The notes under the pieces were generated by a model that saw only the letters and a program-made list of their open reading frames with translations, searched no databases and had not been told where the DNA came from. A stretch of DNA of 64,000 nt from Alphaproteobacteria bacterium (GTDB lineage: Bacteria > Pseudomonadota > Alphaproteobacteria > GCA-2731375). Shown one piece after another: positions 12,001 through 24,931 of the stretch (its first letter is position 1; the number at the start of each line of letters is the position of its first letter). The stretch lies in NCBI GenBank assembly GCA_965232515.1, contig CBDDPY010000002.1, forward strand, positions 7,040,001 to 7,104,000. The letters are read 5' to 3'. The position numbers were made by a program, and so were the translations under genes.

Positions 12001-15000
12001 CGCGGCCGCGTCGGGTGGCGAGGTTGACGTCGACGCCCGTGGCCGACGCGCCATAGGCGGCGGTGTCGCGGCCGGCGCCGCCGGTCAGCAGGTCGGCGCC
12101 GGCGCCGCCGGCGAGCGCGTCGTCGCCGGTGCCGCCGTCGAGCTGGTCGTCGCCGGCGCCGCCGAACAGCGCATCATCGGCGCCCTGGCCGGAGATGTTC
12201 ACCGCGTCCGTTCCGGTGGTCCAGAACACGTCGGAGGCGATGCCGCCGATCGCCATCTCGGCGTTGATCTGGCCGAGATCGATGGCGAGGCCGAGCGGGC
12301 CGTCGGCGATCACCAGGTCGAAGCCGTCGCCGGCGTCGATCAACAGCCCGCCCTGATCGTCGACCACCCGGTCGTCGGAATCGATCATCAGGATGTCGTC
12401 GCCGGCGCCGGCCGAGAAGTCGTCCTCGCCGGTGCCGCCGATCAGGATGTCGTCGCCGGCGCCGCCGATGAGCACATCATCGCCAGAGCCGCCGTCGATC
12501 CGGTCGTCGCCGATGTTGCCCGTCAGCGTGTCGTCGCCGCCACCGCCGACCATGGCCGCCGGCGCGGTGGCGCTCGACGACAGGATGTCGTTGCCGTCGC
12601 CGCCGACCACCGCCTCGAAGCCGTGGGCGGCGATGTCGATGGTGCGGCCGACGCTGCCCTCGATGACCAGCGTATCGCGGCCGTCGCCGCCGGAGATATT
12701 GGCCATGTTGTCGGCGTCGTCGATGACGATGATGTCCTGGCCGCCGCCGCCGTGCAGCGTGTCGCTGCCGGCGCCGCCGACCAGCTTGTCGTCGCCCTCG
12801 CCGCCGGTCAGCACGTCGGCGCCGTCGCCGCCGTAGGCCGCGGTCAGGCCGTCGGCCGTCAGGTCGACGCTGATGCCGGCCGCACCGTCGCCGGCGGCGC
12901 GGATCTGGCTGCCGTCGTCTTTGCGGATGGTGACGCTGCCGTCGGCATTCTGACGCAGGCCGGTGGTGCCGTAGCCCAGGCCGACGTCGCCGAACGTGCC
13001 GGTGCTGCCGTCGGACTTGCGGTAGCGGCCTGTGCCGAGCACGACGTTGCCGTTGTTCTCCCGGTGCTGGCCGTCGCTCGTGAGCGTCACCTCGGTGATT
13101 CCTGCGGCGTCCAGGCCGACAAACTCGCCGGGGTCCGTGATGCCGTCCTGGTCCAGGTCCTGCCAGACGCCGAACTTCGACCATTCGGCATCGGCCGAGC
13201 TGAGCACGCCGTCGTCGTTCCTGTCGAAGAATTTGAGGCCGTCGAGGTCGGTCTCGGCGCCCAGCACGTAGGCGCGGAAGGCGATCTCGTCGAAGTCGGC
13301 GATCAGGCCGTCGCTGTTCTTGTCATAGGCCAGGAAGCCGTCGTCCGGCGCCACCCAGCCGACGCGGTGGAGGAAGCCGGAGGCGTCCAGCGCGAACTGC
13401 GCCGGCGAGTCGTTGAAATGCACCAGCTCCAATCCGTCGCCGTCGAGATCCAGCACCAGCGGCAGGGCGCCGCCGCCGTCGCCGCCCGGGCCACCGTCAC
13501 CGTCGGCCGGGGGATTGTAGTATTGCGGGATCTTGTTGGTCTCGGGCGGCGTGTCGAAGTTCAGCAGCTTGCCGTTATAGAAATAGCCGGCCAGCACCGG
13601 CTCGTTGTCGTGGCCGTAGGTCCAGTGCCAGTTCTTCGGATCGTTGGCCGCGGCTTGGCGCGCCTGCTTCTCGGCCAGCAGCGCCGCCTCGTACTGGGCG
13701 ATCGATTGCGCCCGCGTCAGATCGTAGAGCGCCTGCGTCTCGCCGCCGACCAGCGCCGTGTCGAGCTGCAGCGCCGCCGCCCGGCGCTGGCTCTCGGCCC
13801 AGCGCGCCTGCGCTTCGGCGCCGCCGGCGTCGACCATGGCCAGGAACGTCGCCTCGTCAGTGCGATAGAAGCTCCAGTCCCAGGCCGCGGTCAGGTCGTC
13901 GTCCATCTCGGCCAGTGTCTGCGCGGTCGAGCGGTAGAGCGCGCGCTTCACGTAGATGTCGCCGCCCTCGAGCTGCACGGACTTGAGCTGGTCCAGCGCG
14001 CCGGCCTCTATCGCCGCCTGGGCCGTGCTGTAGTGCGGAAAGCCGAAATTGTCGGTCTCGGCGTCGCTGCGGCCCCAGAAATAGCCGGTCACGTCCTTGC
14101 CATACTTGTACTTGGCCTCGTGCACGTTGGCGACGCGGCCGCCGGCCTTGGCCGTGAAGATGTTCAGGAAGTCGGCCGCCGCCTGGCCCATCTCGACGAC
14201 GACACCGGCCCCCAGCCCGTTGTCCGAGCCATAGCCGTCGATCAGGAAATGCTCGTCCCGGAAGCGCACGTTCGAATGCCCGATCGGCCCCACGCTCTTG
14301 CCACCCCCGAACAGCCCGCCGATCGAGGTGCCGAAGAACGAGCCTGCGAAGAACACGGCGGCGAGGGCGACGATGGCAGTTGCCGGATTAGAGCCGAGTG
14401 CAGCGGCGAAGAGACTTTTAGCACTGCCAATGCCAAAAGCAGTCGAGGATGCTACTGCGGTTGCAGCAAGGCTGCCAATAGCGCCGCCGATGGCTTGCCC
14501 CTTGGGGTTGCCGCCATCGAAGATGGTGGTCGCGAGTTTGGAGCCGAAATAGGAACCGACGGCCGTGGCGGCCGACACCTGGAGTGCCTGCTGAAAAGAC
14601 GCGGTGGCAATCCACGACTGCGAAGTAGCTCCGAGTTTCTCAGCGACTCGGACACCGATCTGCTGGGCGGCCGTACGGCCGAAAATGCCCCCGATAAGTT
14701 CGCCATACTCAGCATTGACACCAATGGCGTCTGCCAGCTCGGCACCGATTTCCGTGCCGACAAGATTGCCGACTGCGTTGATGCCGGCCTGCACGACACC
14801 TGTCGCGAGGCCGTCAGCGGTGATACCTGAGAAATCCTCGCCATATGCGGCTTGGGCGAGCGTGCTCAGCGTTGTGCTGATAAGCACCTCACTGGCAATT
14901 TGTAGGGCTTCATTATCGTCGATAAATGCTTCCGCGAGCTGCGATCCGATGAAGGACGCGGCGCCGGATACCAACTGCTGACCGAACTCGTTCGCATTAA

Positions 15001-16768
15001 AGTCGAAATCAATGCTACCACTATTGCTGCTGCCTTCGGATCCAGCAGTCGCACCGCCAGTGCTTGTCGGATCGACGATCGATGTCTCTGCACGGCCCAG
15101 GGTTGCGTTGATCTTCTCTTGGTAGGCCGCATAGATCGTCCCTGCTCCGGCAAGACCTACGGAGTCATTTGGATCGACTCGATCGAATCCGGAGCTGTCA
15201 GTGAATCCATCCGCAAAATCGGAAAAATCTCGAGCTTGATCAATTTGTCCAAATGAAAACCGAGTTTGAACCGGCTCCCAGGCGTCTGATTCAGTACTTT
15301 CAAAATTGTAAAGCTCATGTCTACTCAGTCCTAAACCCAACTCTGAGTCGTCCTGACTGAATATTACTTGAGGCGTGCCATCGCCAAAGAGTACGGCAAG
15401 CTGTTGACCTTCGGGATTGCCGCTTTCATCAAAAAACTGATATGTGGCCCAAGCGCCTCCGGCTGAAATACCTTCTGAGCTAAACTCGGCGGTCAATGTT
15501 TCTTGGAGGTTGGATCCATTATCAGCTTCATAAGAAACAATCGTGGTTCGTAGATAACCCCCGGATCCATTCGGTCGATCTGTTGCGACTGGATCAGAAG
15601 TTGCGACGTAGGATTGTTGAATTAAGCCATTTAAGAAGCTTTGAACAGGCGCGTCAGTAGTGTCGCTTGCAAACTGACGGTCTGAAGGAAATATACTCGC
15701 CTTCCTTCGCATCTGATCGGCAATGTAGTCTTGGGACAGATTGCTACGATCGATTGCCTCCTGCAGTGTAAGCGTTGTTACAGGAGATTCTCCCGCAGAC
15801 AGGCCGTCGTACACCGGGTCCAAGTCCGAAACAAAGTAACGTTGTCCATCGATTTCTAAATCTAATACATACGCCTGTCCCGCCCGACCAACCGAAAGAC
15901 TACCATTGTCTTCGGGAATTAGCACATCGTTGAGATTATTCCCAAAAGCGGATTCAAAGTGGGTAAGGTCTGTTATATATTTTTCAAAATTTCTCCAATA
16001 AACATGTTCTGAAAATGGACCGTATGAGTCTGTTTGTATTACCTTGTACTGCTCCCCTATCTGAACAGCATAGTCAGTTACGATATCTGGACCGCTAAAA
16101 ATATTTCTAATATTCGGATCTCTAGAGATTTTTGGTGTTTTAACTCCAAAAACAGATAAAATACGTGAAGCGACATCACCAACGAAGCCTACACCTGCCC
16201 AAAACGCTCCACCCTGCCCTGGTGTTGCCGTGTTTGTGACTTTGTTATATTTATCAGGAAATTTCTCATATAATGCAATCGTGTTGATTCCGCCAGATGA
16301 ATCACCATGAAGATCAATAACTGGATCAACATTTCCTTGTTGAATAATTAGATCGCGAGTTTTTTCGGCCCATAAAATAAACCCATCCGATTGAATTCCA
16401 CCACCTACAATTGCTAATAATGCTGTGTTAAAAGCATCTGCTTGATTTCTTAGCGTTCCATCAGATGCAAAGACAAAAGAGTCATTTTTATTATTTTTTA
16501 CTGCTAGATAATTACCTCCCGTGGATGCCTTTTCTCCGGCGAAGAATTCGTACTTATCTTCTATATCCAAACGTATGTTCTTAAAATTTTGAATAATCAC
16601 ATCGTTTGCGCCGTCTTTTTCAAGACTAGTTTGCAAACGATCAAATATGGTATCTCTAACGTTCTCAAAATTCCTCGCATTAAAACTCGGAAGATTTTCG
16701 GTTTCATAGGCAATATAACTCAATATAGATGTTTCAACGATTTCGCGTAGTGATAATTCATTTCTCAC
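1..16768 (-). CDS. Giant RTX-family T1SS substrate, over 5,589 aa, 3' end beyond the window: N-terminal lipase-like domain, hydrophobic region, FrpC SPM-like module, RTX repeats, Ig-like and 7-bladed propeller modules
   Basis: GTG at 16768 preceded by GGAGGG. Manual translation starts MRNELSLREIVETSILSYIAY and is still in frame at base 2 (GGDDVLDGGAGID). The ORF track has no terminated minus-strand ORF in this frame, consistent with no stop codon. Many GGxGxD nonapeptides; long in-register antisense ORFs such as 10055-14830. Confidence 0.93.
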   Translation of the reverse strand, partial: MRNELSLREIVETSILSYIAYETENLPSFNARNFENVRDTIFDRLQTSLEKDGANDVIIQNFKNIRLDIEDKYEFFAGEKASTGGNYLAVKNNKNDSFVFASDGTLRNQADAFNTALLAIVGGGIQSDGFILWAEKTRDLIIQQGNVDPVIDLHGDSSGGINTIALYEKFPDKYNKVTNTATPGQGGAFWAGVGFVGDVASRILSVFGVKTPKISRDPNIRNIFSGPDIVTDYAVQIGEQYKVIQTDSYGPFSEHVYWRNFEKYITDLTHFESAFGNNLNDVLIPEDNGSLSVGRAGQAYVLDLEIDGQRYFVSDLDPVYDGLSAGESPVTTLTLQEAIDRSNLSQDYIADQMRRKASIFPSDRQFASDTTDAPVQSFLNGLIQQSYVATSDPVATDRPNGSGGYLRTTIVSYEADNGSNLQETLTAEFSSEGISAGGAWATYQFFDESGNPEGQQLAVLFGDGTPQVIFSQDDSELGLGLSRHELYNFESTESDAWEPVQTRFSFGQIDQARDFSDFADGFTDSSGFDRVDPNDSVGLAGAGTIYAAYQEKINATLGRAETSIVDPTSTGGATAGSEGSSNSGSIDFDFNANEFGQQLVSGAASFIGSQLAEAFIDDNEALQIASEVLISTTLSTLAQAAYGEDFSGITADGLATGVVQAGINAVGNLVGTEIGAELADAIGVNAEYGELIGGIFGRTAAQQIGVRVAEKLGATSQSWIATASFQQALQVSAATAVGSYFGSKLATTIFDGGNPKGQAIGGAIGSLAATAVASSTAFGIGSAKSLFAAALGSNPATAIVALAAVFFAGSFFGTSIGGLFGGGKSVGPIGHSNVRFRDEHFLIDGYGSDNGLGAGVVVEMGQAAADFLNIFTAKAGGRVANVHEAKYKYGKDVTGYFWGRSDAETDNFGFPHYSTAQAAIEAGALDQLKSVQLEGGDIYVKRALYRSTAQTLAEMDDDLTAAWDWSFYRTDEATFLAMVDAGGAEAQARWAESQRRAAALQLDTALVGGETQALYDLTRAQSIAQYEAALLAEKQARQAAANDPKNWHWTYGHDNEPVLAGYFYNGKLLNFDTPPETNKIPQYYNPPADGDGGPGGDGGGALPLVLDLDGDGLELVHFNDSPAQFALDASGFLHRVGWVAPDDGFLAYDKNSDGLIADFDEIAFRAYVLGAETDLDGLKFFDRNDDGVLSSADAEWSKFGVWQDLDQDGITDPGEFVGLDAAGITEVTLTSDGQHRENNGNVVLGTGRYRKSDGSTGTFGDVGLGYGTTGLRQNADGSVTIRKDDGSQIRAAGDGAAGISVDLTADGLTAAYGGDGADVLTGGEGDDKLVGGAGSDTLHGGGGQDIIVIDDADNMANISGGDGRDTLVIEGSVGRTIDIAAHGFEAVVGGDGNDILSSSATAPAAMVGGGGDDTLTGNIGDDRIDGGSGDDVLIGGAGDDILIGGTGEDDFSAGAGDDILMIDSDDRVVDDQGGLLIDAGDGFDLVIADGPLGLAIDLGQINAEMAIGGIASDVFWTTGTDAVNISGQGADDALFGGAGDDQLDGGTGDDALAGGAGADLLTGGAGRDTAAYGASATGVDVNLATRRGRGGDAEGDVLQGIENLSGSDFDDVLTGDTQDNLLQGGAGADILTGGRGDDALEGGLGDDIYEYGRGDGIDHMLDGHWYDEVTTTEVPVETVQPVNFDYQVLTPITYTARELYTYEVNVPKQVTRQVGVRPVYTYQGEDQTLVGWRYISGGSGEDITWSAYTGQVYTAYDGPGGGDAFTYGLITETYYVKEIRQEWRDVQRTKYEYVTHTGTRDAVVVEYQTVPESERKQSDGGVDTLKFGAGITLADLVFGFDRIGANPDDPHDLLFGLRSPLSPDMPVLALSDRVRLVDWANADSRIEKLQFSDGSVVTLSEASVIEGDARDEVLTGTAGTDFLAGAGGDDHISGEAGDDYLSGGTGDDRVRGKAGADLLYGEAGDDRLLGGDDDDALHGGSGADWLDGGAGIDTASYAHSGDEVAVHLGRDASEGGEAEGDRLRSVENVVASAWADTVFGSADANVIDGGGGSDRLTGGSGDDTLIGGSGFDTAVYRGNRADYEIIGTAGGLTVRDLNGTTNGDDGTDTLTGIERLQFADQAVLVSTLPFATDGLASVGKDGNVTGQLSVADDATAPELLTYAKAQDTAHGTLTLNADGSWTYTPNAGYTGADSFDYRVTDADGNVSVATITVEVVPPTTAVTAGTEIQVNTHTALAQSIPSVAVLADGSFVTVWYSDGQDGGGMGAYGQRFDAAGSALGTEFLINTHTTNDQRHPRVSALSGGGFVVVWESDSQDGSGFGVYGQRHDAAGNKVGGEFRANASTTNHQRRPSVSAFSGGGFVVVWYSDNIDGSQTAIVGQRYTAAGVATGPEFQINTHTADKQYFPRVRVLSDDSFVITWGSEGQDGDGFGVYGQRYDVNGTALGGEFRVNSYTAGAQDEPMIAELADGGFVVAWHSRYQDGSEWGVYGQRYDASGNTVGGEFRVNTHVTDIQFHPVLAGLTDGGFVVVWYSNLQDGSADGVYGQRYDALSRPVGSEFRINDTTLDRQIRPSVAARADGGFVVSWASVGQDGSEEGIVTKIYAGAGGNNGQTAVGSGGDDGLAGSAGSDMLSGGSGDDVLQGNGGDDVLDGGAGSDVAVYGGNASDYWIRRNGSETVVEDRRATPADGTDTLTGVETLRFADGDVDVAASPEAADGLASVGKDGSVTGQLSMTDDTTAPELLSYAVAQSPAHGALTLNAAGSWSYTPTAGYVGADRFDYKVTDADGNVSVATINVDVVPATTAVTAGSELQVNAHTALGQNYPSVAVLSDGSLVTVWHSTGQDGGGLGVYGQRFNAAGTALGGEFRVNSHTTGDQFTPQVAALSGGGFVVSWQSDGQDGSGRGIYAQRYDGAGAAVGSEFRVNTSTTNHQYTPSVSAFSGGGFVVVWYSDNIDGSQTAIVGQRYTAAGVATGPEFQINTFTTGNQHAASVAVLSNDSFVVTWSSDGQDGDGFGVYGQRYDVNGTALGGEFRVNSYTAGAQDESVIAELADGGFVVAWHSRYQDGSEWGVYGQRYDASGNTVGDEFQINTHVTDIQFHPVLAGLTDGGFVVVWYSNLQDGSADGVYGQRYDALSRPVGSEFRINDTTLDRQIRPSVAARADGGFVVSWASVGQDGSEEGIVTKIYAGAGGNNGQTAVGSGGDDGLAGSAGSDMLSGGLGDDVLQGNGGDDVLDGGAGSDVAVYGGNASDYWIRRNGSETVVEDRRATPADGTDTLTGVETLRFADGDVDVAASPDVTAGVVSVTSGGLASGSVGATDDGGVENLTFGIPGTPDANGWVTLSSGSRVRITNAATGDYEYEAAADFTGADSFEITATDAGGLRDVTTVGVDVSAEPSAWSVLGDKFVVSDQSPHTEHHPVGALLSGGGYVLVWMSHAADGDSWGVFGRRFNDDGTPIGSAFQVNSHTTGIQEGANVTALIDGGFVVTWYSYHDGSQSGAYGQRYDASGTAVGAEFRINTTTADYQLNPRVEALADGGFVAVWISNLQDGSEWGVYGQRYDANGAAVGTAEFRVNTATAGTQSDVNISRLSGGGFVVTWRSDGQDGDGGGVFGQRYDATGTTVGSEFQINSTTAGYQGAATVAGLADGGFVVIWQTDGQDGDSGGVYGQRFDADGNSVGDEFRVNETTSGNQSGSNVAALPDGGFVVTWYHSAITSGLHYDSGLGAYARRYDSAGQAIGGEFLVSETAAQEGPRNSSVATASDGRVLFSWWSDTQVGVIQGTAYARMYRLDLSGSMSTSTDGPDALAGGLGGDVLSGGLGDDVLQGNGGDDVLDGGAGSDVAVYGGNASDYWIRRNGSETVVEDRRATPADGTDTLTGVETLRFADGDVDVAASPDVTAGVVSVTSGGLASGSVGATDDGGVENLTFGIPGTPDANGWVTLSSGSRVRITNAATGDYEYEAAADFTGADSFEITATDAGGLRDVTTVGVDVSAEPSAWSVLGDKFVVSDQSPHTEHHPVGALLSGGGYVLVWMSHAADGDSWGVFGRRFNDDGTPIGSAFQVNSHTTGIQEGANVTALIDGGFVVTWYSYHDGSQSGAYGQRYDASGTAVGAEFRINTTTADYQLNPRVEALADGGFVAVWISNLQDGSEWGVYGQRYDANGAAVGTAEFRVNTATAGTQSDVNISRLSGGGFVVTWRSDGQDGDGGGVFGQRYDATGTTVGSEFQINSTTAGYQGAATVAGLADGGFVVIWQTDGQDGDSGGVYGQRFDADGNSVGDEFRVNETTSGNQSGSNVAALPDGGFVVTWYHSAITSGLHYDSGLGAYARRYDSAGQAIGGEFLVSETAAQEGPRNSSVATASDGRVLFSWWSDTQVGVIQGTAYARMYRLDLSGSMSTSTDGPDALAGGLGGDVLSGGLGDDVLQGNGGDDVLDGGAGSDVAVYGGNASDYWIRRNGSETVVEDRRATPADGTDTLTGVETLRFADGDVDVAASPETVDSSASVEKDGSVAGQLSAVDDVTASNLLTYAIAQDVANGTLTLAADGSWSYSPDPGYAGVDSFDYRVTDTDGNVSIGQVVIDVHDDPAGLVISGGIGHDTLLGDGGSDLISGASGDDVLRGDGGDDVLDGGAGSDVAIYGGNIADYWIRRNGVETVVEDRRATPADGTDTLTGIETLRFADGDVDLATLPTPVGGIASVGRNGTINGQLGATDDATAPELLTYALAQDATHGQLTLNASGSWTYTASSGYTGADSFDYKVTDAGGNVAVGQITIDVADQLANVATSEERRANTFTTGFQAKGHMATLPDGGFVVAWRSDNQEGATSNVYAQRFDATGDAVGPEFRVNSYTTSHQENPRVASFSNGAFIVVWWSDGQDGSSTGIFGQRYNASGTPVGGEFQVNTTTAGAQRGSDIAVLPDDGFVVTWSAEGQDGSERGIYGQRYDAEGKVVGGEFQINTHTAGMQSAAVVTALLDGGFVVTWRSDGQDGNGYGVHGQRFAANGSRMGVEFQVNSHTTGDQLSSAIGALHDGGFIVVWVSNGQDGSGYGVYAQRYDATGGVVGPEFQVNTQTANNQAYARVTALADGGFVIAWMSHDSVNAPENKVFARRYDTGGNPLGDEFQVSDYTPGTPAEQRLQAIDARPDGGFVISWQSFGQDGSDYGVFAKVYGDTEFQVNSYTTGEQSTPSVAVLSDGGHVVVWRSSLQDGSGYGAYGQRYDASGTAVGGEFRVNSHTVGDQYEPRVAALSDGGFVVVWPSDGQDGGGLGIYGQRYDAAGTAVGGEFRANSYTTDHQWVPSVAGLLDGGYVIAWRSSGQDGDTLGVYGQRYDATGTAVGGEFRINTTTVGDQRDPWVIGLSGGGFAVVWTSSQDGSIQGITGQRYDAAGVALGGEFEVNTHTSDIQAYPVAAALLDGGFVVVWQSLGQDGSGYGIYGQRYDASGVTVGGEFQVNSHVTGAQSVAAVTALADGGFLVSWSSELQDGGATGMGAYAQRYDATGNAVGGEFRLNDYTAGDQSFAVVAGRADGGFVTAWKSQDQDGSGYGVYAKVYEGDGQSLSGGDGNDALAGSAVSDSLSGASGDDVLRGNGGDDVLDGGAGID
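150..10095 (-). repeat. About 55-aa (165-nt) beta-propeller blade repeats, six groups of seven, separated by Ig-like and RTX spacers
   Basis: Consensus EFxVNxxTxGxQxxPxVAxLxDGGFVVxWxSxxQDGSGxGxYGQRYDAxGxxVGG. Seven blades counted in each group at about 150-1285, 1290-2440, 3620-4775, 5415-6570, 7215-8345 and 8960-10095. Confidence 0.85.
3300..7132. repeat. Apparently perfect in-frame tandem duplication, 1,794-bp unit, about 2.1 copies
   Basis: Unit starts at 3300, 5094 and 6888 (tccggcgatgccgcgacatcg). ORF-track translations are identical at a 1,794 offset (3662/5456, 4478/6272, 4546/6340). Confidence 0.95.
6890..10380. repeat. Older in-frame module duplication, 1,746-bp period, partly diverged
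   Basis: About 6890-7750 is near-identical to about 8636-9496 (shadow ORFs 7478 and 9224 are offset by 1,746); the remainder is more diverged. Confidence 0.85.
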
Positions 16769-16784
16769 GAGCTTTCCCTCCAAA

Positions 16785-17477
16785 TTAATCTGCTAATCTG
16801 GGAATGAGTATATTTGTGAGTTTTTTTCGATTCATGTTTATTTTGTCAATATTTTTGCATTTTGTTAAAATATATCTATTTATATCTAGTGAATACGTGT
16901 ATTCATTGTGCAAATATATATTTTGATTTATTCTTCTATTCATAACAATATGAGAGGTCTTGTTTAATATTTCACCATTGTTCCTTAAGGCACTTCGTTT
17001 TTCTACAAACTCATACTCAGCAGTTATCTGCTTTATTGGTTTGGCTGTGATGCAGACCTGTCCAGAGTCCAGTGGCATCGCGCATAGTGGATGATCAGCA
17101 CTAGCGAGTTCAAAGCGATACATGCCCGGGCGCAACTTGCTTATGCTATTTCGGCGGGAACTAGTGACCTCTGCTTCAACGAAGGCGTATCCGGCAACTC
17201 GAAGAAACTCAGACATTTGATGCCTGCAAATATTGCTGCAACCACCAAAGCGATACTGCGAAGTCCGCTCGGCGATGATGTGAATTTCAACAATGCCTGC
17301 GTGGAAAAATCCTTCCACGTCTCTAGTCGGTCTATAGATCTGTAAACCAGCATCGCGTTCGCAGATTTGATCGAATTTTGCAGTCGAAGGTGATGTTCCT
17401 TCAAACCGTAAGGAACACCCCGCTGTAGTCGTTGCGATGATAATAAAAATAACCCACGATATTTTATAGTTCATCAT
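16785..17477 (-). CDS. Low-GC, Cys-rich lipoprotein; candidate immunity or FrpD-like partner of the RTX protein
   Basis: Signal peptide MMNYKISWVIFIIIATTTAGC with lipobox TAG-C21. Stops 16 nt before the RTX start and shares the AT-rich composition of the RTX N-terminus. Confidence 0.8.
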   Translation of the reverse strand: MMNYKISWVIFIIIATTTAGCSLRFEGTSPSTAKFDQICERDAGLQIYRPTRDVEGFFHAGIVEIHIIAERTSQYRFGGCSNICRHQMSEFLRVAGYAFVEAEVTSSRRNSISKLRPGMYRFELASADHPLCAMPLDSGQVCITAKPIKQITAEYEFVEKRSALRNNGEILNKTSHIVMNRRINQNIYLHNEYTYSLDINRYILTKCKNIDKINMNRKKLTNILIPRLAD

Positions 17478-17673
17478 TTTCCAAGAACCTACCTAATGTA
17501 ATATTCTGTTTAACAACATCATCGTCGGAAAGCCAATGTTCCTGTATTGAAATTCATTATTTTCACTTGCAGATCCTGTTACCTTGTTTTCCATATCCAC
17601 CATCTGTCCGTGTCTGAAAACTGCTCAGTCGATCCGCAATACCAAACAGGCTGACAGGAACTTCACCGAGGTT

Positions 17674-18288
17674 TCACCACTCCACGACACTCACGCCCTG
17701 CCCACCGGGTGCGGGCTGCAGGGACTTCACCTTGCGGCCCTTGAAGGTTTCTTCTTTTAGTTGGCGCATGGCTTCTTCGGTGCCGCCGAAGGGACAGACG
17801 AGGTCGATGAGCCAGAGCTGGTCGCCGGAGCGCCATTCGGCGGGCGCGAGGCGACGGACTCCGGAAGCGAGACGGGCGGCGGCCTCGTCGTTGAGGAACG
17901 CCCAGGAGGCGAAGGCGACGGGCAGGTTGTCGCGGCGCCAGAGCCGGAACTGCTTCAGGCCGATCGGCGGCATCAGCAGCCATTCCAGGTCCTGCACGAA
18001 CATGTGCTTGTGCAGCGGCGAATGCATCATCACCCAGGCCGCCTGGCCGAGGATGCTCGAGAGGTCAGGCGTGATGTTCGGGCGCTGGGGGGCGGCGCCG
18101 GCCTGGTCCGCCGGGCCAGCCTCGGCGGCGGCTTGCGGCTCGGCGGCCGGCGGTTCGCCTGCTTGCGGCGCCGTGGCCGGGGGCGGCGTGGCGGCGGCGC
18201 CGTTGCCGGCCTCCGCGCCGCTGCTGTCGTCGTCGCTGTTCGAGGCGGTGGTGGGGTCGGTCTCGTTGCCGGCGGTGATGTCGGTCAT
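17674..18288 (-). CDS. hlyC: RTX toxin-activating lysine acyltransferase (HlyC/RtxC/CyaC family) with an acidic, Pro/Ala-rich N-terminal extension
   Basis: Family motifs LGQAAWVMMHSPLH, PVAFASWA, EWRSGDQLWLIDLVCPFGG. ATG at 18288 has a GGAG RBS and is preferred over the track's start at 18378. Confidence 0.92.
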   Translation of the reverse strand: MTDITAGNETDPTTASNSDDDSSGAEAGNGAAATPPPATAPQAGEPPAAEPQAAAEAGPADQAGAAPQRPNITPDLSSILGQAAWVMMHSPLHKHMFVQDLEWLLMPPIGLKQFRLWRRDNLPVAFASWAFLNDEAAARLASGVRRLAPAEWRSGDQLWLIDLVCPFGGTEEAMRQLKEETFKGRKVKSLQPAPGGQGVSVVEW

Positions 18289-18484
18289 GTCCGTGCTCCG
18301 TTGCTGGTGCGCCGTGCCGCGATGCAGGCGTGGCGCCAACGGCGCGCGGTCTGTCGCGCGCCTGTCGAAGTGTGGCACGGATCGGGGCGGGTCAGGATTT
18401 GATCTGCGGTCGTGCCAGTGGGGCGGTGGCGGTCGTGTCGGTGTGCCGGGACTTGCGCGACCGGTACCGGTGGCGACGGCGCAT

Positions 18485-18977
18485 GGATGCCGGCCTGCGC
18501 CGTTATGACGGGGGAGGGGGCGAACGCACGTCTGCGTAACCGCGACAGCCTCACATTGTCATGCCCGGGCTTGACCCGGGCATCCAGAGCGGCATTCGCG
18601 CGTTGTCGCGGCTCGTCCAGCTTCCTGCCTGTCGCAACCGTTTGTCTGGATCCCTGGATCAAGTCTGGGGATGACCAAAAGTGACTCGGGAGTGACCAAA
18701 AGCGACTCGTGGATGACCATGGGTGAAGCATGGACGAGGGGTGGGCGGCGGTTGGAGACCGTCGTGACGTCGGCTTCATCGTCATGCCGGCGGCGGCCGG
18801 CGTCCGGGGCTTGCGTTCACCGCTGAACGGTTCAGAGAGGTACGGATCATCGGCGCCGATTGGCGTCGGCGCGATGACCTGTCGGCGGTTGGCATGCGTC
18901 GCGGGCGGCAATGACGCGTGGCCGTGACGTGTGTCGGAAACGGCAAGCCCGGATGCCGGCCGGCGGCGGCATGACGG
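18485..18977. repeat. Cluster of alphaproteobacterial REP-like palindromic elements
   Basis: GTCATGCCCGGGCTTGACCCGGGCATCCA (18558-18586) pairs with TGGATCCCTGGATCAAGTCTGGGGATGAC (18647-18675). CGTCATGCCGGCGGCGGCCGGCGTCCGGG (18780-18808) pairs with CCCGGATGCCGGCCGGCGGCGGCATGACG (about 18948-18977). A half unit lies at 18485-18510. Confidence 0.7.
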
Positions 18978-19217
18978 TGTTGCGATGAGATTGTGCGGGT
19001 GAGTTGCCGTCGTCCGAATTGCGGTGACGGTTTGGTCGCGGTACGTCAGATACGGAGACTCAGCGAGACTCGGATACGTCACATCGACCCCCAACTTCAC
19101 AACCGCAAATGACTCGACAGATCGACCATCGATTGCGGCTACGACCCGAACACAATCTTCGACCGGAATCGGTTCTGAACGCAAGGGTTGAGTCGCGGAC
19201 TGGGCGAAAAAAGTTGC

Positions 19218-20618
19218 TCAGCGCTCGCGAATGGCCTCGTCGCGGTAGCGCAACAGCGGCGTCAGCACGTATTCGATGACCCGGCGCTGGCCGGTCTTGA
19301 TGTCGACCGTCACCGCCATGCCCGGCGTCAGGCGCATGTCGTTGCCGTCGGCGCGGATGGTCTCGCGCGACATGGCGACGCGGATCGGGAACACGAGGCC
19401 CATACCTTCGCGCTCGATCGCGTCGTCGGAAACGTGCAGAACGTCGCCCGAAATGGTGCCGTACTTGGTGAACGGAAACGACTCGACCTTGATCTCGACG
19501 GCCTCGCCCGCGGCGACGAAACCCTTATCCTTGTTGAGCATCATCGCTTCGACCTCGAGCCGCTCGTCGTCCGGCACGATGATCATCAGCTGCTCGTCGG
19601 TGGTGACGACGCTGCCGACGGTATGCACGGCGAGCTGGTGCACCATGCCGTCGACCGGCGCGACGAGCTGGTTGCGCTCGTCGCGGCGCACGGCCTTCTT
19701 CAGCTCCTCGGCCAGCCCCGCGATTTCTTTCCGCAGGTCCTCGCGTTCGGCTACGGCGTTGGCGAGGAATTCGGCCTGGGTCTCGGCCGCCTGCCGGCGC
19801 AACGCCTCGATCGCGGCCTCGGCGGCGCGGTAGCTGCCCTCTGCGCGGGCCAGGTTGGCCTCCTCCTCATGCAACTGCTGCGCGACCTCGAGATAGGCGG
19901 CCCGGCTGCCGAAGCCTTTCTCGGCGAGACGCACGCGCTGATCGACGCGCTCGCGGATCACGGCGACCATCTGGCGTTGGCGGATGCGGGTGTCGTCGGC
20001 GCTGGCGAGCTCGGCGTGGCGCTGGCTGATCTGGCCGTCGATGGCCGCGAGCTCGGCCCGGTGCGCGGCGACGGCGGTCAGGAACAGTTGCCGCTGGCCC
20101 TCGACCAGCACGGGATCGCCGTCGGCCGGCGGCTCGAAGGCGGCGTCGGGCGGGTCGAGTTTGAACCGCGTGACGGTGATCAGCGCGTCGAGCCGGGCAG
20201 CCTCGACGCGCGCGGTCATCAGTTCCTGCGTCAGGCGCTGGCGGTCGGCGGCGGCATCGGTCGGATCCATCTCGAACAGGATGTCGCCGGCGCGCACGTG
20301 GCTGCCGTCGCGCACGTGGATGGCGGCGACGGTGCCGGTCTCCAGCGGCTCGATGACCTTGACTCGGCCAGACGGCACGATCTTGCCCTGGGCGGTAGCG
20401 TGGATGTCGATCTTGCCGAAGGTGGCCCAGGCGAGCGCCGCCGTGAAGAAGGCGATGATCAACCACAGCGTCAGGCGGCCGGCGGGCGAGGCGGGGCTGT
20501 CCATGATCTCGATCGCCGCCGGCAGGAAGGCGCGCTCGGCGGCGTTGCGGTCGGGCTTCTTCGGCTCCGCCTTCTCGGCAGCGATCGACGCCTTCAGTAC
20601 CTGCATCACGCGGCCCAT
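19218..20618 (-). CDS. hlyD: HlyD-family T1SS membrane fusion protein (locus 1)
   Basis: FLPAAIEIMDSPASP, single TM segment, GKIVPSGRVKVIEPLE, coiled coil, VESFPFTKYG, LTPGMAVTVDIKTGQRRVIEYVLTPL. TGATG overlap with hlyB. Confidence 0.95.
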   Translation of the reverse strand: MGRVMQVLKASIAAEKAEPKKPDRNAAERAFLPAAIEIMDSPASPAGRLTLWLIIAFFTAALAWATFGKIDIHATAQGKIVPSGRVKVIEPLETGTVAAIHVRDGSHVRAGDILFEMDPTDAAADRQRLTQELMTARVEAARLDALITVTRFKLDPPDAAFEPPADGDPVLVEGQRQLFLTAVAAHRAELAAIDGQISQRHAELASADDTRIRQRQMVAVIRERVDQRVRLAEKGFGSRAAYLEVAQQLHEEEANLARAEGSYRAAEAAIEALRRQAAETQAEFLANAVAEREDLRKEIAGLAEELKKAVRRDERNQLVAPVDGMVHQLAVHTVGSVVTTDEQLMIIVPDDERLEVEAMMLNKDKGFVAAGEAVEIKVESFPFTKYGTISGDVLHVSDDAIEREGMGLVFPIRVAMSRETIRADGNDMRLTPGMAVTVDIKTGQRRVIEYVLTPLLRYRDEAIRER

Positions 20619-22864
20619 CAGTCGGCGGCTCCGGCATCCGGTTGCCCGCCGACGTCGCCGACCTGGTGGCGGTAGAGCGTCGCGTAGCGGCCGCCCTGGC
20701 GCAGCAGCTCGTCATGCGTACCCATCTCGACGACGCGGCCGGCCTCGATGGTGATGATGCGGTGGCATTGACGCACGGCGGCGAGACGGTGGGCGATGAT
20801 GAAGACGGTGCGGCCCTTCGTGATTTGGCGCATGTTCTGTTGGATGGCGTATTCGGATTCGTAATCCAGCGCCGAGGTCGCCTCGTCGAAGATCAGGATG
20901 CGCGGGTCGGTGACCAGCGCCCGGGCGATGGCGATACGCTGACGCTGGCCGCCGGACAGATTGCTGCCGCGCTCGCCGATGGCGGTGTCGTAGCCCTGCT
21001 CGAGCTCGAGAATGAAGTCGTGCGCGCCGGCGAGCTGGGCGGCGCGGACCACGCGGTCCATGGGCATGCCGGGGTCGGCGAGCGCGATGTTCTCGCGCAC
21101 GGATCTGTTGAACAGCACGTTCTCCTGCAGCACGACGCCGATCTGCCGGCGCAGCCAGGCCGGGTCGACCATGGCCAGGTCAACGCCGTCGATCAGCACG
21201 CGGCCGCTTTCCGGCACGTAGAGGCGCTGCAGCAGCTTGGTCAGCGTGCTCTTGCCCGAGCCCGAGGGGCCGACGATGCCGACGACCTCGCCGGGCGAGA
21301 AGTCGAGCGTGATGTCCTTCAGGATCTCCGGCCCGCCCGGACGGTAGCGGAAGGTGATGTGGTCGAAGGCGATGCGGCCGCGGATCTGCGGCAGGGCGCT
21401 GCGGGCGCCGCCGCCCTCGAGTTCGGTGGGCGCGTTCAGGATGTCGCCGAGGCGGGCAAGCGAGATCCGCACCTGCTGGAATTCCTGCCAGAGCTGGGCC
21501 AGGCGCAGGATCGGCGCGCTGACCCGGCCGGCCAGCATGTTGAAGGCGACGAACTGGCCGACCGTGAGGTCGCCCGACATCACCAGCTTGGCGCCGAACC
21601 AGAGCGTCAGCGCGATGACGACCTTGTTGATGAGCTGGGTGATCTGACCGGCGACGTTGCCGAGGTTGGTGGCCTTGAAGCTGGCGCTCACGTAAGCCGC
21701 GAGCTGGTCTTCCCAGCGGCGCTGCATCTGCGGCTCGACCGCCATGGCCTTGAGCGTCTCGACGCCGGTGACGGCCTCGACCAGGAAGGCCTGGTTCTCG
21801 GCGCCGCGGTTGAACTTCTCCTCCAGGCGATGTCGCAGGATGGGCGTCACGAACACGGCGAGCGCGACATAGAACGGGATCGAGGCCAGCACGATCAGCG
21901 TCAGCGTCGGGCTGAACACCCACATCACGGCGAAGAAGACGAAGGTGAAGAACAGGTCGATGACGAGCGTCAGCGCCGAGCCGGTGAGGAACGAGCGGAT
22001 GGTTTCGAGCTCGCGCACGCGAGCCACTGAATGGCCGGCCTGGCGCGCTTCGAAATAAGCGATCGGCAGCGACACCAGATGCCGGAAGATGCGGGCGCCC
22101 AGCTCAACGTCGACGCGGCTGGTGGTGTGCGCGAAGACGTAGTGGCGCAGCGCGCCGAGCACGACCTCGAACAGCGAGACCGCGATCAGGCCGGCGACCA
22201 GCACGTCGAGCGTGGTCAGGCCGCGGTGCACCAGCACCTTGTCGATCACCACCTGGAAGAACAGCGGCGTGATCAGCGCGAAGAGCTGCAGGAAGAACGA
22301 GGCGACCAGCACCTCGCCGAAGAGGCGCCGGTAGCGCACAATCGAGGGGATGAACCAGGTGAAGTCGAACTTGCGCAAGGCGCCGGCGAGGCTCGCCCGC
22401 GTCGTCAGCAGGATCAGCGCGCCGGTCCAGGTGGCTTGAAATTCTTCGAGGCCGAGCTCGCGCGGGCCCCGGTCGCGCGGGTCCTGGATCAGCACCTTGT
22501 CGTCGGCGGCCTTTGCGAGCACGCAGAAGGCGCCGTCGGCGAGCTCGGCGATCGCCGGCAGCTCGACGCGGCCGAGGCGGTCGACGGACGACTTCACGCG
22601 CTTTGCTTTCAGGCCGACGCGCTTCGCCGCGCGCAGCAGATCGTCGGCGCCGAACAGAGCGCCCTGCAGGCCGAGGTCATGCTGCACCTGGGCCGGCTCC
22701 ACCGCGATGCGGAAGAACCGCGCCATCAGCATCAAACAGGCCAAGCCGGTGTCGACTCGCGGCTCTGCGCCGGCCTTTCCGTCGCCGTCCGTGCTGGTGT
22801 CTACGCCACGCTCAACGGATTCCGTCGGCGCAGCCGGTGTTGGCTGTGTCGTCTCGCCATCCAT
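20618..22864 (-). CDS. hlyB: HlyB-family T1SS ABC transporter with an N-terminal C39-like, probably non-catalytic, domain
   Basis: DTGLACL at the C39 catalytic position (Thr, not Cys); KFDFTWFIP; Walker A GPSGSGKST; signature LSGGQRQR; Walker B ILIFDEATSALD. Confidence 0.96.
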   Translation of the reverse strand: MDGETTQPTPAAPTESVERGVDTSTDGDGKAGAEPRVDTGLACLMLMARFFRIAVEPAQVQHDLGLQGALFGADDLLRAAKRVGLKAKRVKSSVDRLGRVELPAIAELADGAFCVLAKAADDKVLIQDPRDRGPRELGLEEFQATWTGALILLTTRASLAGALRKFDFTWFIPSIVRYRRLFGEVLVASFFLQLFALITPLFFQVVIDKVLVHRGLTTLDVLVAGLIAVSLFEVVLGALRHYVFAHTTSRVDVELGARIFRHLVSLPIAYFEARQAGHSVARVRELETIRSFLTGSALTLVIDLFFTFVFFAVMWVFSPTLTLIVLASIPFYVALAVFVTPILRHRLEEKFNRGAENQAFLVEAVTGVETLKAMAVEPQMQRRWEDQLAAYVSASFKATNLGNVAGQITQLINKVVIALTLWFGAKLVMSGDLTVGQFVAFNMLAGRVSAPILRLAQLWQEFQQVRISLARLGDILNAPTELEGGGARSALPQIRGRIAFDHITFRYRPGGPEILKDITLDFSPGEVVGIVGPSGSGKSTLTKLLQRLYVPESGRVLIDGVDLAMVDPAWLRRQIGVVLQENVLFNRSVRENIALADPGMPMDRVVRAAQLAGAHDFILELEQGYDTAIGERGSNLSGGQRQRIAIARALVTDPRILIFDEATSALDYESEYAIQQNMRQITKGRTVFIIAHRLAAVRQCHRIITIEAGRVVEMGTHDELLRQGGRYATLYRHQVGDVGGQPDAGAAD

Positions 22865-23114
22865 CTCTTCACAGAGCTGCCGGCGGACGAACGGCGTCTT
22901 ACCCGCGCCGTTTGACCCCCACCTAAGCGGCCCCCCACAACTCGACCACTACGGTAGATGGAATTCGGCGGCGGATAAAGTTATCAATTGCACCGGCGCC
23001 GATCTGCGACATCGCGCCGCGCAAGCCAGCATGCATCAGCAAATGTTGTTGGGTGTGTGCGTGTCGAGGGGCGACGAAGCCCTTGCTAAGACTGTGATTG
23101 AGAGGGGGGATGTG

Positions 23115-24662
23115 GTGACGCAAGCGGGCAATCGTCAGCAACGCCGTCGCGCCCGGCGCAGCGCCGGCGCGCCGCCGGCCAAAGCGCAACGGTTGAGCGC
23201 CGAGGCCGCGGCGATGCTGGCGGCCGGCGACCTTGAGGGCGCGGTCGCCGCCTTCGAGGCGGCGCTCCGGCTGGCGCCGGAGAACGCCGACCTTCTGAGC
23301 AATCTAGGTTTGGCCCTGAAGCAGGCTGACCGTGACGACGAGGCGATCGCCGTGCTGCGGCGCGCGTTGACGCGTTCGCCGCACCATGTTCCGGCGCTTA
23401 AGGGCCTGCACAACCTGCTGCAGGGGCGCGAGGACGACGACGGCCTGCTGCCGGTGCTGCGGGCGCTGGTCGCCGCCGCGCCGGACGAGACGATCCATCA
23501 CGCCAACCTGGCGAACGTGCTGTTGAAGCTGGACCGGCGTGATGAATCCGAAGCCGCGTTCCGTGCCGTGCTCGACCGTAATGCCGACGATCTGAATGCG
23601 CTGGTCAATCTCGCCAGCCTGCGGCAGGCCGCCGGCGCGGCGGCGGAAGCGGAGACCTTGCTGCGCCGTGCCTTGACGCTATCGCCTGACGATCCGGCCG
23701 CGAACTACAATCTCTCGCGCTTGCGTCTTCTCGCCGGCGATTTTGACGAGGGCTGGCGGCGACACGAGTACCGCTGGCAGTGCGAGGACTTTCAAGGCTG
23801 GCTGCGGCCGTTCCGGGTTCCGCGCTGGGACGGCTCGGTGTTCGCGGGTCGGACCTTGCTGGTGCACGCCGAGCAGGGCATCGGCGATACACTGCAGTTC
23901 CTACGCTATCTGCCGCTGGCGAAGGCGCGGGGCGGCCGTGTGCTGCTGGAGGTGCAGCGTGGCCTCGGTCGGTTGCTGGCGGGTTTCAGTGGTGCCGATC
24001 AGATCGTGGAGCGCGCGCCGCTCTGGCCGGCCGACGACAAGCTGCCGCCCTATGATCTGCATTGCCCGTTGATGAGCCTACCGTTCGTGCTGGGTCTCGA
24101 GCGTCGCGAGCTCACCGGACCCGGCCCGTATCTCCACGCCGATGGACATCGCGTGAACGCCTGGGCCGAGCATCTGGCGGCCCACCCTCGGCCCCGCGTC
24201 GGCCTGGTCTGGGCCGGCAATCCCCGCAACCGCATCGATGCGCAACGCTCGTTCGGATTTGACGCGCTGTCCGAGGTGCTCGCCGCAGCGGGACCAAGCT
24301 GGTTCAGCCTGCAGGTGCCAACTCAATCGGATCGCGCCGCGTCTCTGGCGGCGGCGGGCGTGAGCGATCTCGGAGCCGAACTCACCGACTTCGCCGAAAC
24401 CGCGGCCGTGCTCGCCAACCTCGATCTATTGATCTCTGCCGACAGCGCACCTGCCCACCTCGCCGGCGCGCTCGGCTATCCTGTTTGGGTGCCGACCTAC
24501 GAGCCGCCGGAATGGCGCTGGCTGACACAGGGAACCGCCACGCACTGGTATCCGACCATGCGCCTCTTCCGGCAACCAGCGCCGGGCCAGTGGACGCCCG
24601 TCTTCACTGCCATCGCCGCTGCACTCACCCAAGCCGTCGCTGCTAGCCGTAAGGCTGGGTGA
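23115..24662 (+). CDS. TPR-repeat protein with a C-terminal GT-B (GT9-like) glycosyltransferase domain
   Basis: Several TPRs (LLSNLGLAL, HHANLANVL, ALVNLASL, ANYNLSRL), then LLVHAEQGIGDTLQFLRY, RVGLVWAGNP and DFAETAAVLANLDLLISADSAPAHLAGALG. Start moved to the GTG after GAGGGGGG. Confidence 0.9.
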   Translation: MTQAGNRQQRRRARRSAGAPPAKAQRLSAEAAAMLAAGDLEGAVAAFEAALRLAPENADLLSNLGLALKQADRDDEAIAVLRRALTRSPHHVPALKGLHNLLQGREDDDGLLPVLRALVAAAPDETIHHANLANVLLKLDRRDESEAAFRAVLDRNADDLNALVNLASLRQAAGAAAEAETLLRRALTLSPDDPAANYNLSRLRLLAGDFDEGWRRHEYRWQCEDFQGWLRPFRVPRWDGSVFAGRTLLVHAEQGIGDTLQFLRYLPLAKARGGRVLLEVQRGLGRLLAGFSGADQIVERAPLWPADDKLPPYDLHCPLMSLPFVLGLERRELTGPGPYLHADGHRVNAWAEHLAAHPRPRVGLVWAGNPRNRIDAQRSFGFDALSEVLAAAGPSWFSLQVPTQSDRAASLAAAGVSDLGAELTDFAETAAVLANLDLLISADSAPAHLAGALGYPVWVPTYEPPEWRWLTQGTATHWYPTMRLFRQPAPGQWTPVFTAIAAALTQAVAASRKAG

Positions 24663-24841
24663 GCTGCCATCGCGACACACGAGAACACGATGCGGGGCAA
24701 ACACCTGAAAGGGGATTGCAGGTCATTTTTGTCGAGAACACTGACCGACGGCGGCAGTATTGATTCGGCGTCCTTCGTCACGGCCAAGCTATTTTCTCAA
24801 AGGCCCTAAGCTCTCCATGCCCAGCAAAGATGGCGGCTGAC

Positions 24842-24931
24842 GAAAAATGTCTTTCATTTCGCGACCACGCGTGTGGTCTTGGCCATCGGTCGTCAAGATC
24901 TCAGGTCTCAGAGATTTTGACCCCCCTCCCT
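24842..24931 (-). other. cos-like phage packaging site (putative)
   Basis: Minus strand reads GGGAGGGGGGTCAAAATCTCTGAG...GACGACCG...CGCGAAATGAAAGACATTTTT, resembling from memory the sequence between HNH and terS in HK97/P27-type cos phages. It lies downstream of the primase. Confidence 0.45.

Follow-up and report, generated by a model that had tools for sequence, protein, structure and literature searches.

Why should a strongly AT-rich segment, holding a small exported lipoprotein-like gene and the beginning of a giant RTX gene, lie amid the genes of a type I secretion system (T1SS) in an otherwise GC-rich alphaproteobacterial genome, and what might its products do? The locus that raises this question lies in the stretch of 64,000 nucleotides analysed here, called the window throughout (G000:C2:7040001-7104000), which belongs to a genome of 7.39 Mb and 65.5% GC. 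On the minus strand its genes follow one another in the order hlyB, hlyD, a gene-poor spacer of ~840 bp, hlyC, a spacer of 196 bp, an open reading frame (ORF) of 230 amino acids (aa) and the giant RTX ORF, the N-terminal domain of which we call the head and the conserved body the carrier. The anatomy of this locus, its compositional anomaly, the modular variation among its relatives and the homology leads are established below. The best explanation for them is that the head and the upstream lipoprotein form one horizontally acquired, fast-evolving AT-rich cassette set between hlyC and the conserved RTX body, a reading that, taken as a whole, we regard as evenly balanced between right and wrong.

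The AT-rich cassette, its head and its partner

A preliminary description of the window had reported an AT-rich block covering the lipoprotein gene and the first ~500 RTX codons, and a GC sliding window bears this out. GC content is 0.31-0.48 across ~15.2-17.65 kb against 0.60-0.75 in both flanks, and the value of 0.412 for 15209-17673 is as low in just 0.011% of 36,651 sliding windows of 2.4 kb along the 7.33-Mb contig. GC at third codon positions (GC3) is 0.29 for RTX aa 1-330, 0.38 for aa 331-520 and 0.39 for the lipoprotein gene, versus 0.88-0.92 for the flanking hlyC, hlyD, hlyB and RTX aa 831-1266. Delimited by GC and GC3, the cassette (15150..17673) comprises the spacer between hlyC and the lipoprotein gene, that gene itself and the first ~520-540 RTX codons; its upstream edge is the hlyC stop, and its downstream edge, at ~aa 520-590, is where homology with the nearest relative sets in. 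Convincing flanking repeats were not found, and scans for promoters and terminators at the cassette gave scores no higher than those of shuffles. A second DNA sample contains the identical cassette sequence, in fragments, with no strain-level polymorphism.

The RTX gene likely starts at the GTG codon at 16768, which has GGAGGG 7 nt before it and the lipoprotein stop 16 nt before it. From this start, aa 1-330 form the head (15779..16768, minus strand), which motifs, Atlas features and hhalign point to as a class-3-lipase-like alpha/beta-hydrolase domain, and aa 331-520 form a variable, AT-rich linker (15209..15778, minus strand) in which family scans recognised no family. The four motifs named in the preliminary description are all found at the residues given there: FASDGT at aa 100-105, VIDLHGDSSGG at aa 150-160 (G155-D-S157-S-G159, the Ser157 codon being 16298-16300), GPDIV at aa 226-230 (D228) and SEH at aa 253-255 (H255). 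The GxSxG of the head, a putative nucleophile elbow, is preceded by an (R)GT-type strand motif.

Several comparisons bear on the nature of this domain. By ESM Atlas features the head scores 0.95 to clusters named Lipase_3, Mbeg1-like and 'Phospholipase-like', and its top ten named clusters all fall in one lipase clan. When the window head was aligned with its counterpart from the related locus in genome G021 (described below) and compared by hhalign with 19 Lipase_3 segments from alphaproteobacterial genomes, the result was 87.4% (E 3.7e-6), with FASDGT falling on the rGT strand and HGDSSGG on GHSLGG; controls gave 0.4% for the reversed query, 0.3% for the window sequence alone and 0.1% for the Magnetospirillum aberrantis head. 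A link between the two came from a profile search of 401 genomes: in G057 a T1SS substrate of 2,050 aa has an N-terminus, homologous to the head, that carries the canonical GHSLGG. In hhalign this bridging N-terminus matches the window family at 94.3% (E 1e-7, 244 columns) and Lipase_3 at 93.1% (E 3e-7), and in Pfam it scores 20.4 bits to Lipase_3 (cut-off 22) and 21.1 bits to UPF0227 (cut-off 21). Ser157 is invariant across the window, G021 and G057, and P227-D228-x-V230 is common to the window and G021, in which the His is offset by 4 residues. Because the Atlas features, the Lipase_3 alignment, the G057 bridge and the invariant Ser157 converge, we call the head lipase-like and consider it, on these similarities, a probable divergent class-3-lipase-like serine hydrolase.

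Wider searches with the head returned little. A profile of the window and G021 heads found nothing at E <= 0.01 among 5.8 billion clusters (181-578 aa). A phmmer search with aa 1-520 against 1.84 billion representatives gave a single match (E 3e-4) of 22 residues, which we did not accept as a relative, and a profile search of the PDB yielded nothing significant, its matches being CagA (E 0.014) and an alpha/beta hydrolase (E 0.71).

The upstream gene (16785..17477, minus strand) encodes a Cys-rich, exported lipoprotein-like protein of 230 aa, a candidate immunity or binding partner of the head. Its N-terminus has K5, a hydrophobic stretch and a TTAG-C21 lipobox (Cys21), a call for which we take the rule to be that of PROSITE PS51257. 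The earlier designation of this protein as a lipoprotein is upheld by the lipobox and by six Cys shared with one close homologue, the counterpart at the same position in G021, in which a membrane anchor replaces the lipobox. The protein has no match in Pfam, NCBIfam or PHROG; a search among 5.8 billion clustered proteins returned itself alone, and a profile of the two homologues matched 0 PDB chains at E <= 10, FrpD included. A predicted complex of the head (aa 1-300) with the mature lipoprotein scored 0.00 and 0.01 in runs made without controls, values that speak neither for nor against binding.

Relatives of the carrier and their heads

Relatives of the locus are recognised by a conserved core domain of the carrier (aa 832-1101, NVRFRDEHF ... 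QLEGGDIYVKRA; 13466..14275, minus strand; alignment A4). This core is rare: when 185,579 species genomes were scanned for its pattern, 2 loci matched, and it occurs in 2 of 33 genomes of the order and in 5 of 401 genomes of the class, where the two matches in G264 are prophage tape measure proteins. The search for the core in long proteins scored 7,998 candidates of 1,204-3,435 aa, and members may be missed. In a metagenome scan all 53 loci match the SPM-like part of the carrier alone, which adds no further members of the carrier family.

The preliminary description had suggested comparing the heads and upstream genes of homologues, and these are not all alike: G021, M. aberrantis and G025 differ. 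The G021 locus keeps the gene order of the window, AT-rich dip included, and its identity to the window falls from 78% for HlyB and 63% for HlyD to 47% for HlyC, 43% for the core, 23% for the upstream protein (E 3e-12) and 20% for the head (E 0.011 for the N-terminus). After hlyC, the M. aberrantis locus has the gene for an unrelated signal-peptide protein of 159 aa and then an unrelated head of ~470 aa, both at 38-44% GC; the best score of that head in an Atlas search, 0.77, is uninformative. In G025 the order is hlyB, hlyD, an AT-rich pair coding for a membrane-anchored protein of 235 aa and a cell-wall hydrolase of 446 aa, then hlyC and the RTX gene, whose product has ~100 residues ahead of the hydrophobic region. 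The 446-aa hydrolase matches PF07486 with 33.4 bits (cut-off 27) and a PHROG endolysin. Among the remaining matches, the metagenomic P0008 has a weak core match behind a distinct 460-aa head with HELSH, the RTX gene of G164 directly follows hlyC, and the RTX locus of G370 is apparently truncated. hlyC is found at the G021, M. aberrantis, G025 and G164 loci.

The lipase-like head also occurs on another carrier that lacks hlyC, in G057, where the protein consists of the lipase-like domain, an SPM-like module, Ig repeats and a second SPM-like module, the part coding for its N-terminus being AT-rich. Its locus (L125, G057:C16, 2276-12503, minus strand) holds hlyB, hlyD and the gene for the 2,050-aa protein. 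Besides two SPM-like modules, that protein has nine cadherin/Big_9 repeats. The 3' end of its gene is overlapped by an AT-rich (33% GC) ORF for a 187-aa multi-pass membrane protein.

The heads on the shared core are thus lipase-like in the window and in G021, unassigned in M. aberrantis, a separate cell-wall hydrolase in G025 and HELSH-bearing in P0008, so that a single carrier is combined with unrelated modules in different genomes, as in polymorphic toxins. The small exported gene is homologous where the heads are homologous (window and G021) and unrelated where the heads differ (M. aberrantis and G025); each of the four small upstream proteins begins with a hydrophobic segment for export or anchoring and contains 4-7 Cys, and the head modules and small partner genes of G021, M. 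aberrantis and G025 are AT-rich like those of the window. Because one carrier bears different heads and one head rides different carriers, we see in this family the signature of polymorphic toxins.

Two of these loci show further peculiarities. In M. aberrantis SpK (L018) the RTX gene is split at ~11935-11965, at a run of ~10 G, into ORFs at 8168-11953 and from 11964 onwards, the split reflecting an error in sequencing, a frameshift or a tract subject to phase variation. The G025 locus (L108, G025:C35, 5800-9450, minus strand) has the 235-aa ORF at 8740-9444, the hydrolase ORF at 7382-8719, hlyC at 6287-6826 and the RTX ORF from 6216, the ORF pair having 39-46% GC, and here what look like the two halves of a Hint domain are divided between genes. 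The 446-aa hydrolase ends in the N-terminal Hint blocks alone (CFGAGTLI..., TPGH), which fall on the opening positions of four Hint models and reach 92.9% in hhalign against PT-HINT segments (the PT-HINT alignment consisted of 3 of 6 fetched segments). The RTX protein has the C-terminal Hint blocks at aa 82-110 (YTVYNFTVEGYHTYVAGGIRVHN-S), equivalent to PT-HINT positions 106-134 of 137, at 97.0% in hhalign with reversed controls at 0.2-2.2%; its ORF opens with these blocks (...HTYVAGGIRVHN-S), and hlyC separates the two Hint halves. The arrangement suggests an intein-like domain that has been split and could join or process the separately encoded head and carrier. The RTX protein of G164 has an equal C-terminal Hint block (94.5%), with no N-terminal half in the 3 kb examined upstream of its hlyC. 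In the window, a candidate Hint remnant at the junction of head and carrier, HELYNFES, was rejected as not significant, its score being reached by 52 of 500 shuffles. At locus L128 (G147:C58) a PT-HINT segment ends in ...GIRVHN with the SPM-type start motif PIVVDLD within three residues; because PT-HINT runs into PIVVDLD there, Hint and SPM-like modules adjoin in at least one other protein.

The carrier body and its surroundings

The window contains aa 1-5589 of the RTX protein (2..16768, minus strand, by ORF and domains), and the gene continues past the window start to a complete length of 7,811 aa (genome C2:7033333-7056768). Over these 7,811 aa Pfam recognises RTX, HCBP_related, Big_9, cadherin-like and Pentaxin/Laminin_G_3 domains and no propeller family, so that the propeller arrays of the preliminary description have to be given up. 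HemolysinCabind matches occur throughout the protein, the last 600 residues included, and HCBP_related lies near the C-terminus; with C-terminal repeats and adjoining hlyB and hlyD, the protein has the sequence features of an RTX substrate of type I secretion.

Behind the linker, aa 590-830 (14279..15001, minus strand) form a Gly/Ala-rich hydrophobic region with 14 GxxxG motifs, a number that shuffles (5.8 +/- 2.0) attain in 0 of 1000 cases, a glycine zipper and candidate membrane-insertion segment whose most hydrophobic stretch is aa 785-822. The region is kept in G021, M. aberrantis and G025. Homologues of the core that follows lie inside two tape measure proteins of G264 prophages (E 2.8e-12 and 1.4e-8; hhalign 96.8%), which are encoded at L109 (G264:C1, 10262-11161) and L110 (G264:C3) in ORFs that match PHROG tape-measure families. 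K941 of the core (GGDIYVKRA) is invariant in three relatives and is a candidate acylation site. Next comes an SPM-like calcium-binding module (aa 1103-1264; 12977..13462, minus strand). Its similarity to the SPM of FrpC (PDB 6sjw, E 3.9e-20; 6sjx, E 2.6e-19) agrees with the preliminary description, except that Leu1102-Pro1103 stands in place of the defining Asp-Pro scissile bond. G021 has Pro-Pro at this site and M. aberrantis Asp-Pro; among the metagenomic SPM modules, 39 of 53 loci fit the motif pattern, and Asp precedes Pro in 0 of the 39.

The dedicated HlyB and HlyD and the hlyC gene that had been reported for the locus are present by family matches. The hlyB-type ABC transporter gene (20618..22864, minus strand) codes for a C39-like N-terminal domain (ABC_membrane 4e-57, ABC_tran 4e-36, Peptidase_C39 2e-21), and the gene for the HlyD-type membrane fusion protein adjoins it (19218..20618, minus strand; HlyD_3 3e-18). 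The hlyC-family acyltransferase gene (17674..18378, minus strand; PF02794 2.7e-39, domain at aa 109-234) is present in a single copy across genome G000, and its true start probably lies downstream of 18378. In the spacer between hlyD and hlyC (18379-19217) there are a 41-nt inverted repeat (18777-18817 / 18939-18979, 80% complementary) and three 21-nt tandem units (18667-18729).

Divergent from hlyB, on the plus strand, an ORF at 22497-24659 encodes TPR repeats and a C-terminal glycosyltransferase-9-like stretch; its true start is probably later because the listed one overlaps the 5' end of hlyB. It lies within the coordinates of the preliminary description, and we found no tie between it and the toxin system. 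Next to the T1SS locus, GC falls to 0.51-0.60 at 24800-30500, where a VapE-like gene (25480-27483), a 414-aa ORF and a tyrosine integrase gene (29321-30499) give the stretch what looks like the make-up of an integrative element; no tRNA genes were found at 22-32 kb of the window. A second giant RTX gene (36479-61138, minus strand, 8,219 aa), with a FecR-like domain near the N-terminus, RTX and Big_9/cadherin repeats, has its own T1SS genes, TolC-like at 61524-62864, an ABC transporter without C39 at 34710-36455 and HlyD-like at 33415-34710, and a CHASE2-cyclase gene (31171-33378) is next after this second locus (33415-62864, minus strand). Elsewhere in the assembly, contigs C3 and C4 (5.5 and 10.9 kb) have GC of 0.46 and 0.42 against 0.655 for the chromosome and may be plasmid, phage or contamination.

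Antibacterial weapon, cytotoxin or adhesin

What would such a cassette be for? We favour the reading that the head is an antibacterial effector against which the lipoprotein, facing the periplasm, gives immunity, the effector being exported by the T1SS, and to us the chances that this is correct and that it is not look about equal. The lipase activity, acylation, delivery route, target and immunity that it involves we infer from the features described above. The giant RTX carrier, probably acylated by HlyC, would leave the cell C-terminus first through HlyB, HlyD and an outer-membrane channel and would fold on calcium; its Ig-, cadherin- and lectin-like repeats would bind target cells, the glycine-zipper segment and the tape-measure-like domain would pass the N-terminal lipase into the target envelope, and the lipoprotein would protect sibling cells. 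We prefer this reading because head and exported partner co-vary in the manner of a cassette, because the alternative cargo in G025 is a peptidoglycan hydrolase, which points to bacterial targets, because the core resembles tape measure proteins, which act on bacterial envelopes, and because alphaproteobacterial RTX bacteriocins exist.

A number of observations count against it. To our knowledge, the HlyC-activated RTX toxins known so far all attack eukaryotic membranes, and poly(A) RNA libraries are among the sequencing runs filed under this organism label, hinting at a eukaryote-associated sample. The variation of heads rests on a handful of loci that are mutually related, and tblastn of G000 found no further genomic copies of head, partner or core and no orphan cassettes. 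For the head, Pfam, NCBIfam and PHROG offer no family for aa 1-520, Pfam at E <= 10 gives nothing for aa 1-500 or aa 1-330, and whole-genome profile searches with PF11187 (Mbeg1-like) and PF01764 (Lipase_3) found no match in G000, the PF11187 search giving weak matches in other genomes only. AlphaFold2 models of the head (from a 2-row alignment) and of the lipoprotein have a predicted local distance difference test (pLDDT) of 38.8 and 33.3, respectively, both too low for fold assignment. D228 and H255 are not conserved or alignable in G057; because D228 is not kept there and the His cannot be aligned, we term the head lipase-like and stop short of assigning it to the family. Of the class-3-lipase-type triad that the preliminary description proposed, what survives is the alpha/beta hydrolase as the most likely assignment on the Atlas, hhalign and G057 evidence; a match to a curated family is missing, and the acid and the His are not kept in G057.

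The partner and the carrier raise objections of their own. The G057 locus has no lipoprotein-type gene upstream of its lipase-like head, and distant homologues of the lipoprotein lie away from lipase and RTX genes in three genomes, one (L122, G025:C71, 7000-12600) inside a 5.5-kb AT-rich island with P-loop and uncharacterised genes and no RTX gene, the others (L123, G253:C44, 1920-2783, and L124, G073:C57, 6445-6966) beside fatty-acid-CoA-ligase-like genes. Because these homologues sit in other contexts the lipoprotein family is not restricted to RTX loci; they would look like orphan immunity genes and equally like an unrelated periplasmic protein family. No homology of the carrier to a known acylated RTX-toxin domain was detected, the matches to NCBIfam RTX_toxin and to CyaA in the PDB covering the repeat blocks alone. 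Finally, the Asp-Pro bond is required for SPM processing, according to passages of PMC7078468, and because Leu-Pro replaces it in the window protein, release of the head by clip-and-link in the manner of FrpC appears unlikely.

Much of the same anatomy would suit a CyaA- or MARTX-like cytotoxin directed at eukaryotes, whether protist grazers or a host, with the lipoprotein as an FrpD-like anchor or chaperone for the N-terminus; the acylated hydrophobic moiety would then insert into the eukaryotic membrane and carry the lipase in. The poly(A) RNA libraries fit such a target, hlyC, hydrophobic region and RTX blocks together are the build of pore-forming RTX toxins (as is generally known of CyaA and HlyA), the enzyme of CyaA is likewise N-terminal, and FrpD, the lipoprotein encoded upstream of frpC, binds the FrpC N-terminus, an adhesion role being proposed for it in passages of PMC5472700. 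The partner in our family, however, co-diverges with the head and is replaced with it, as expected of immunity more than of an anchor, and neither the cell-wall hydrolase that G025 carries instead nor the likeness of the core to phage tape measure proteins speaks for a eukaryotic target. FrpD and the known acylated or hydrophobic domains of RTX toxins show no sequence similarity to the window proteins either, and on these points we think the cytotoxin unlikely, though still a rival to be reckoned with.

The repeats lead in another direction, Big_9, cadherin-like and lectin-like units dominating the 7,811 aa. In a giant biofilm or surface adhesin of the LapA type, an early-folding N-terminus would be retained in the channel, the lipoprotein would be a periplasmic partner, and the GxSxG would be incidental or that of a non-toxic esterase; the window contains another giant RTX gene of adhesin-like type, served by a T1SS of its own, and a LapG-like C93 peptidase is encoded in the genome. 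Yet the only C93 match, at C2:4015444, is 3 Mb off, and there is no LapG-type site, because the first 300 residues contain no Ala-Ala dipeptide. As hlyC and a glycine-zipper region are, by general knowledge, foreign to LapA-type adhesins, and retention modules are not expected to swap for unrelated domains with cognate small genes, an adhesin seems to us quite improbable, more so than a cytotoxin. Taken by itself, the extreme compositional deviation could also mean that the AT-rich block is a recent silent insertion, for example of xenogeneically silenced foreign DNA, with its frame kept by luck and its motifs due to chance; two RNA runs gave 0 reads, a figure that carries no weight as a test of expression. 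That would have to accommodate open frames of 230 aa and 520 codons in DNA of 41% GC, a ribosome-binding site and coupling over 16 nt, a G021 counterpart that keeps the Cys and motif positions, and recurrence of the arrangement in three other genomes; we give it hardly any credence.

The favoured reading, an effector with its immunity protein, can be set beside systems already known. FrpD-FrpC of Neisseria meningitidis likewise has a lipoprotein gene immediately upstream of a T1SS RTX gene and a variable N-terminus of ~350-400 residues ahead of an SPM module (passages of PMC5472700, PMC6759196 and PMC3034196). It is unlike the window in that the window lipoprotein matches no PDB chain, that of FrpD included, and the window has Leu-Pro for Asp-Pro and adds hlyC, the glycine zipper, the tape-measure-like domain and ~6,500 residues of repeats, whereas the FrpC N-terminus is without a known enzymatic fold. 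Bordetella CyaA/CyaC, whose build we take from general knowledge, resembles the window in its N-terminal enzyme, hydrophobic segment, HlyC-family gene, RTX blocks and dedicated T1SS, and the window RTX blocks match CyaA PDB chains. In contrast to CyaA, the window has a lipase-like head and not an adenylate cyclase, hydrophobic and acylated segments without detectable homology, a cognate upstream exported protein, a head that varies among relatives and an environmental alphaproteobacterial host. With the phospholipase effectors and periplasmic or lipoprotein immunity proteins of type VI secretion (T6SS), Tle/Tli, by the general rule for these pairs, it shares a GxSxG hydrolase with an adjacent exported or lipoprotein gene; unlike them, its head matches no curated lipase family and is fused to a T1SS carrier and not carried as T6SS cargo.

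Polymorphic toxins, namely the contact-dependent inhibition (CDI) proteins CdiA-CT/CdiI, Rhs and MafB, have in common with our family a conserved carrier, interchangeable modules, an adjacent small, putatively cognate gene, modules of lower GC and, in a relative, a Hint domain at the junction of carrier and toxin (passages of PMC3482391). The window differs from them in its putative N-terminal toxin and upstream candidate immunity gene, an inverted order, in the absence of orphan cassettes from G000 and in its export by a T1SS, a class absent from the T1SS and RTX passages of that survey (Zhang et al. 2012), which mention T1SS for classical RTX toxins only. A published bridge from RTX N-termini to interbacterial toxins is Smlt3024/Smlt3025 of the Stenotrophomonas X-type type IV secretion system (X-T4SS): in passages of Bayer-Santos et al. 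2019 (PMC6759196), this antibacterial T4SS effector is homologous to many RTX N-termini, and its immunity protein resembles FrpD in fold. Smlt3024 differs from the lipase-like window head in being without an assigned fold, a comparison made by description and not by sequence. Compared likewise by description, RzcA of rhizobia, a giant RTX bacteriocin of 439 kDa whose mechanism awaits characterisation and whose immunity is not dealt with (passages of PMC3034196), and Caulobacter CdzC/CdzD (PMC5380434) are alphaproteobacterial T1SS antibacterials of giant RTX or glycine-zipper type.

The preliminary description had known of no characterised system with the full combination seen here. That holds for the combination as such, none having been found, and has to be narrowed for its parts, since in 2019 passages of PMC6759196 had already put forward the idea that FrpC/FrpD is an effector-immunity pair of the T1SS, and a passage of Burroughs et al. 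2025 (PMC12419801) describes toxin domains fused N-terminal to RTX repeats. Our searches of the open-access literature met with no T1SS effector-immunity system of such a build that has been characterised, relatives being possible among the 221 RTX homologues listed in PMC6759196, and with no report that combines hlyC, a glycine zipper, a non-cleaving SPM-like module and a tape-measure-like domain with AT-rich head-partner cassettes and a split-Hint variant. The concept is already sketched in print and has no characterised member.

A bolder proposal, which we put forward tentatively and hold to be rather doubtful, is that these loci represent a distinct class of T1SS-based polymorphic toxins with inverted polarity, interchangeable N-terminal warheads (lipase-like, metalloprotease-like and unassigned), AT-rich cassettes with an upstream exported immunity gene and, in at least one relative, a separately encoded cell-wall hydrolase as warhead that a split Hint domain appears to join to the carrier or process with it. 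In such a class the glycine zipper of an HlyC-acylated RTX carrier and a domain derived from, or shared with, phage tape measure proteins would breach the envelope of rival bacteria. The T1SS is the one major Gram-negative export route without characterised modular effector-immunity weaponry, and the family in the window provides a concrete test case, with a sharp compositional boundary, a candidate catalytic Ser, a candidate immunity gene and natural variants in which the head is exchanged or has a gene of its own. If the antibacterial reading is true, the principle of polymorphic toxins would extend to the T1SS, the lipoproteins upstream in RTX operons would be explained, and a phage-tape-measure-like module would be tied to the passage of proteins through bacterial envelopes; the split Hint of G025, if functional, would be a natural case of trans-splicing or trans-cleavage that loads a toxin onto its carrier.

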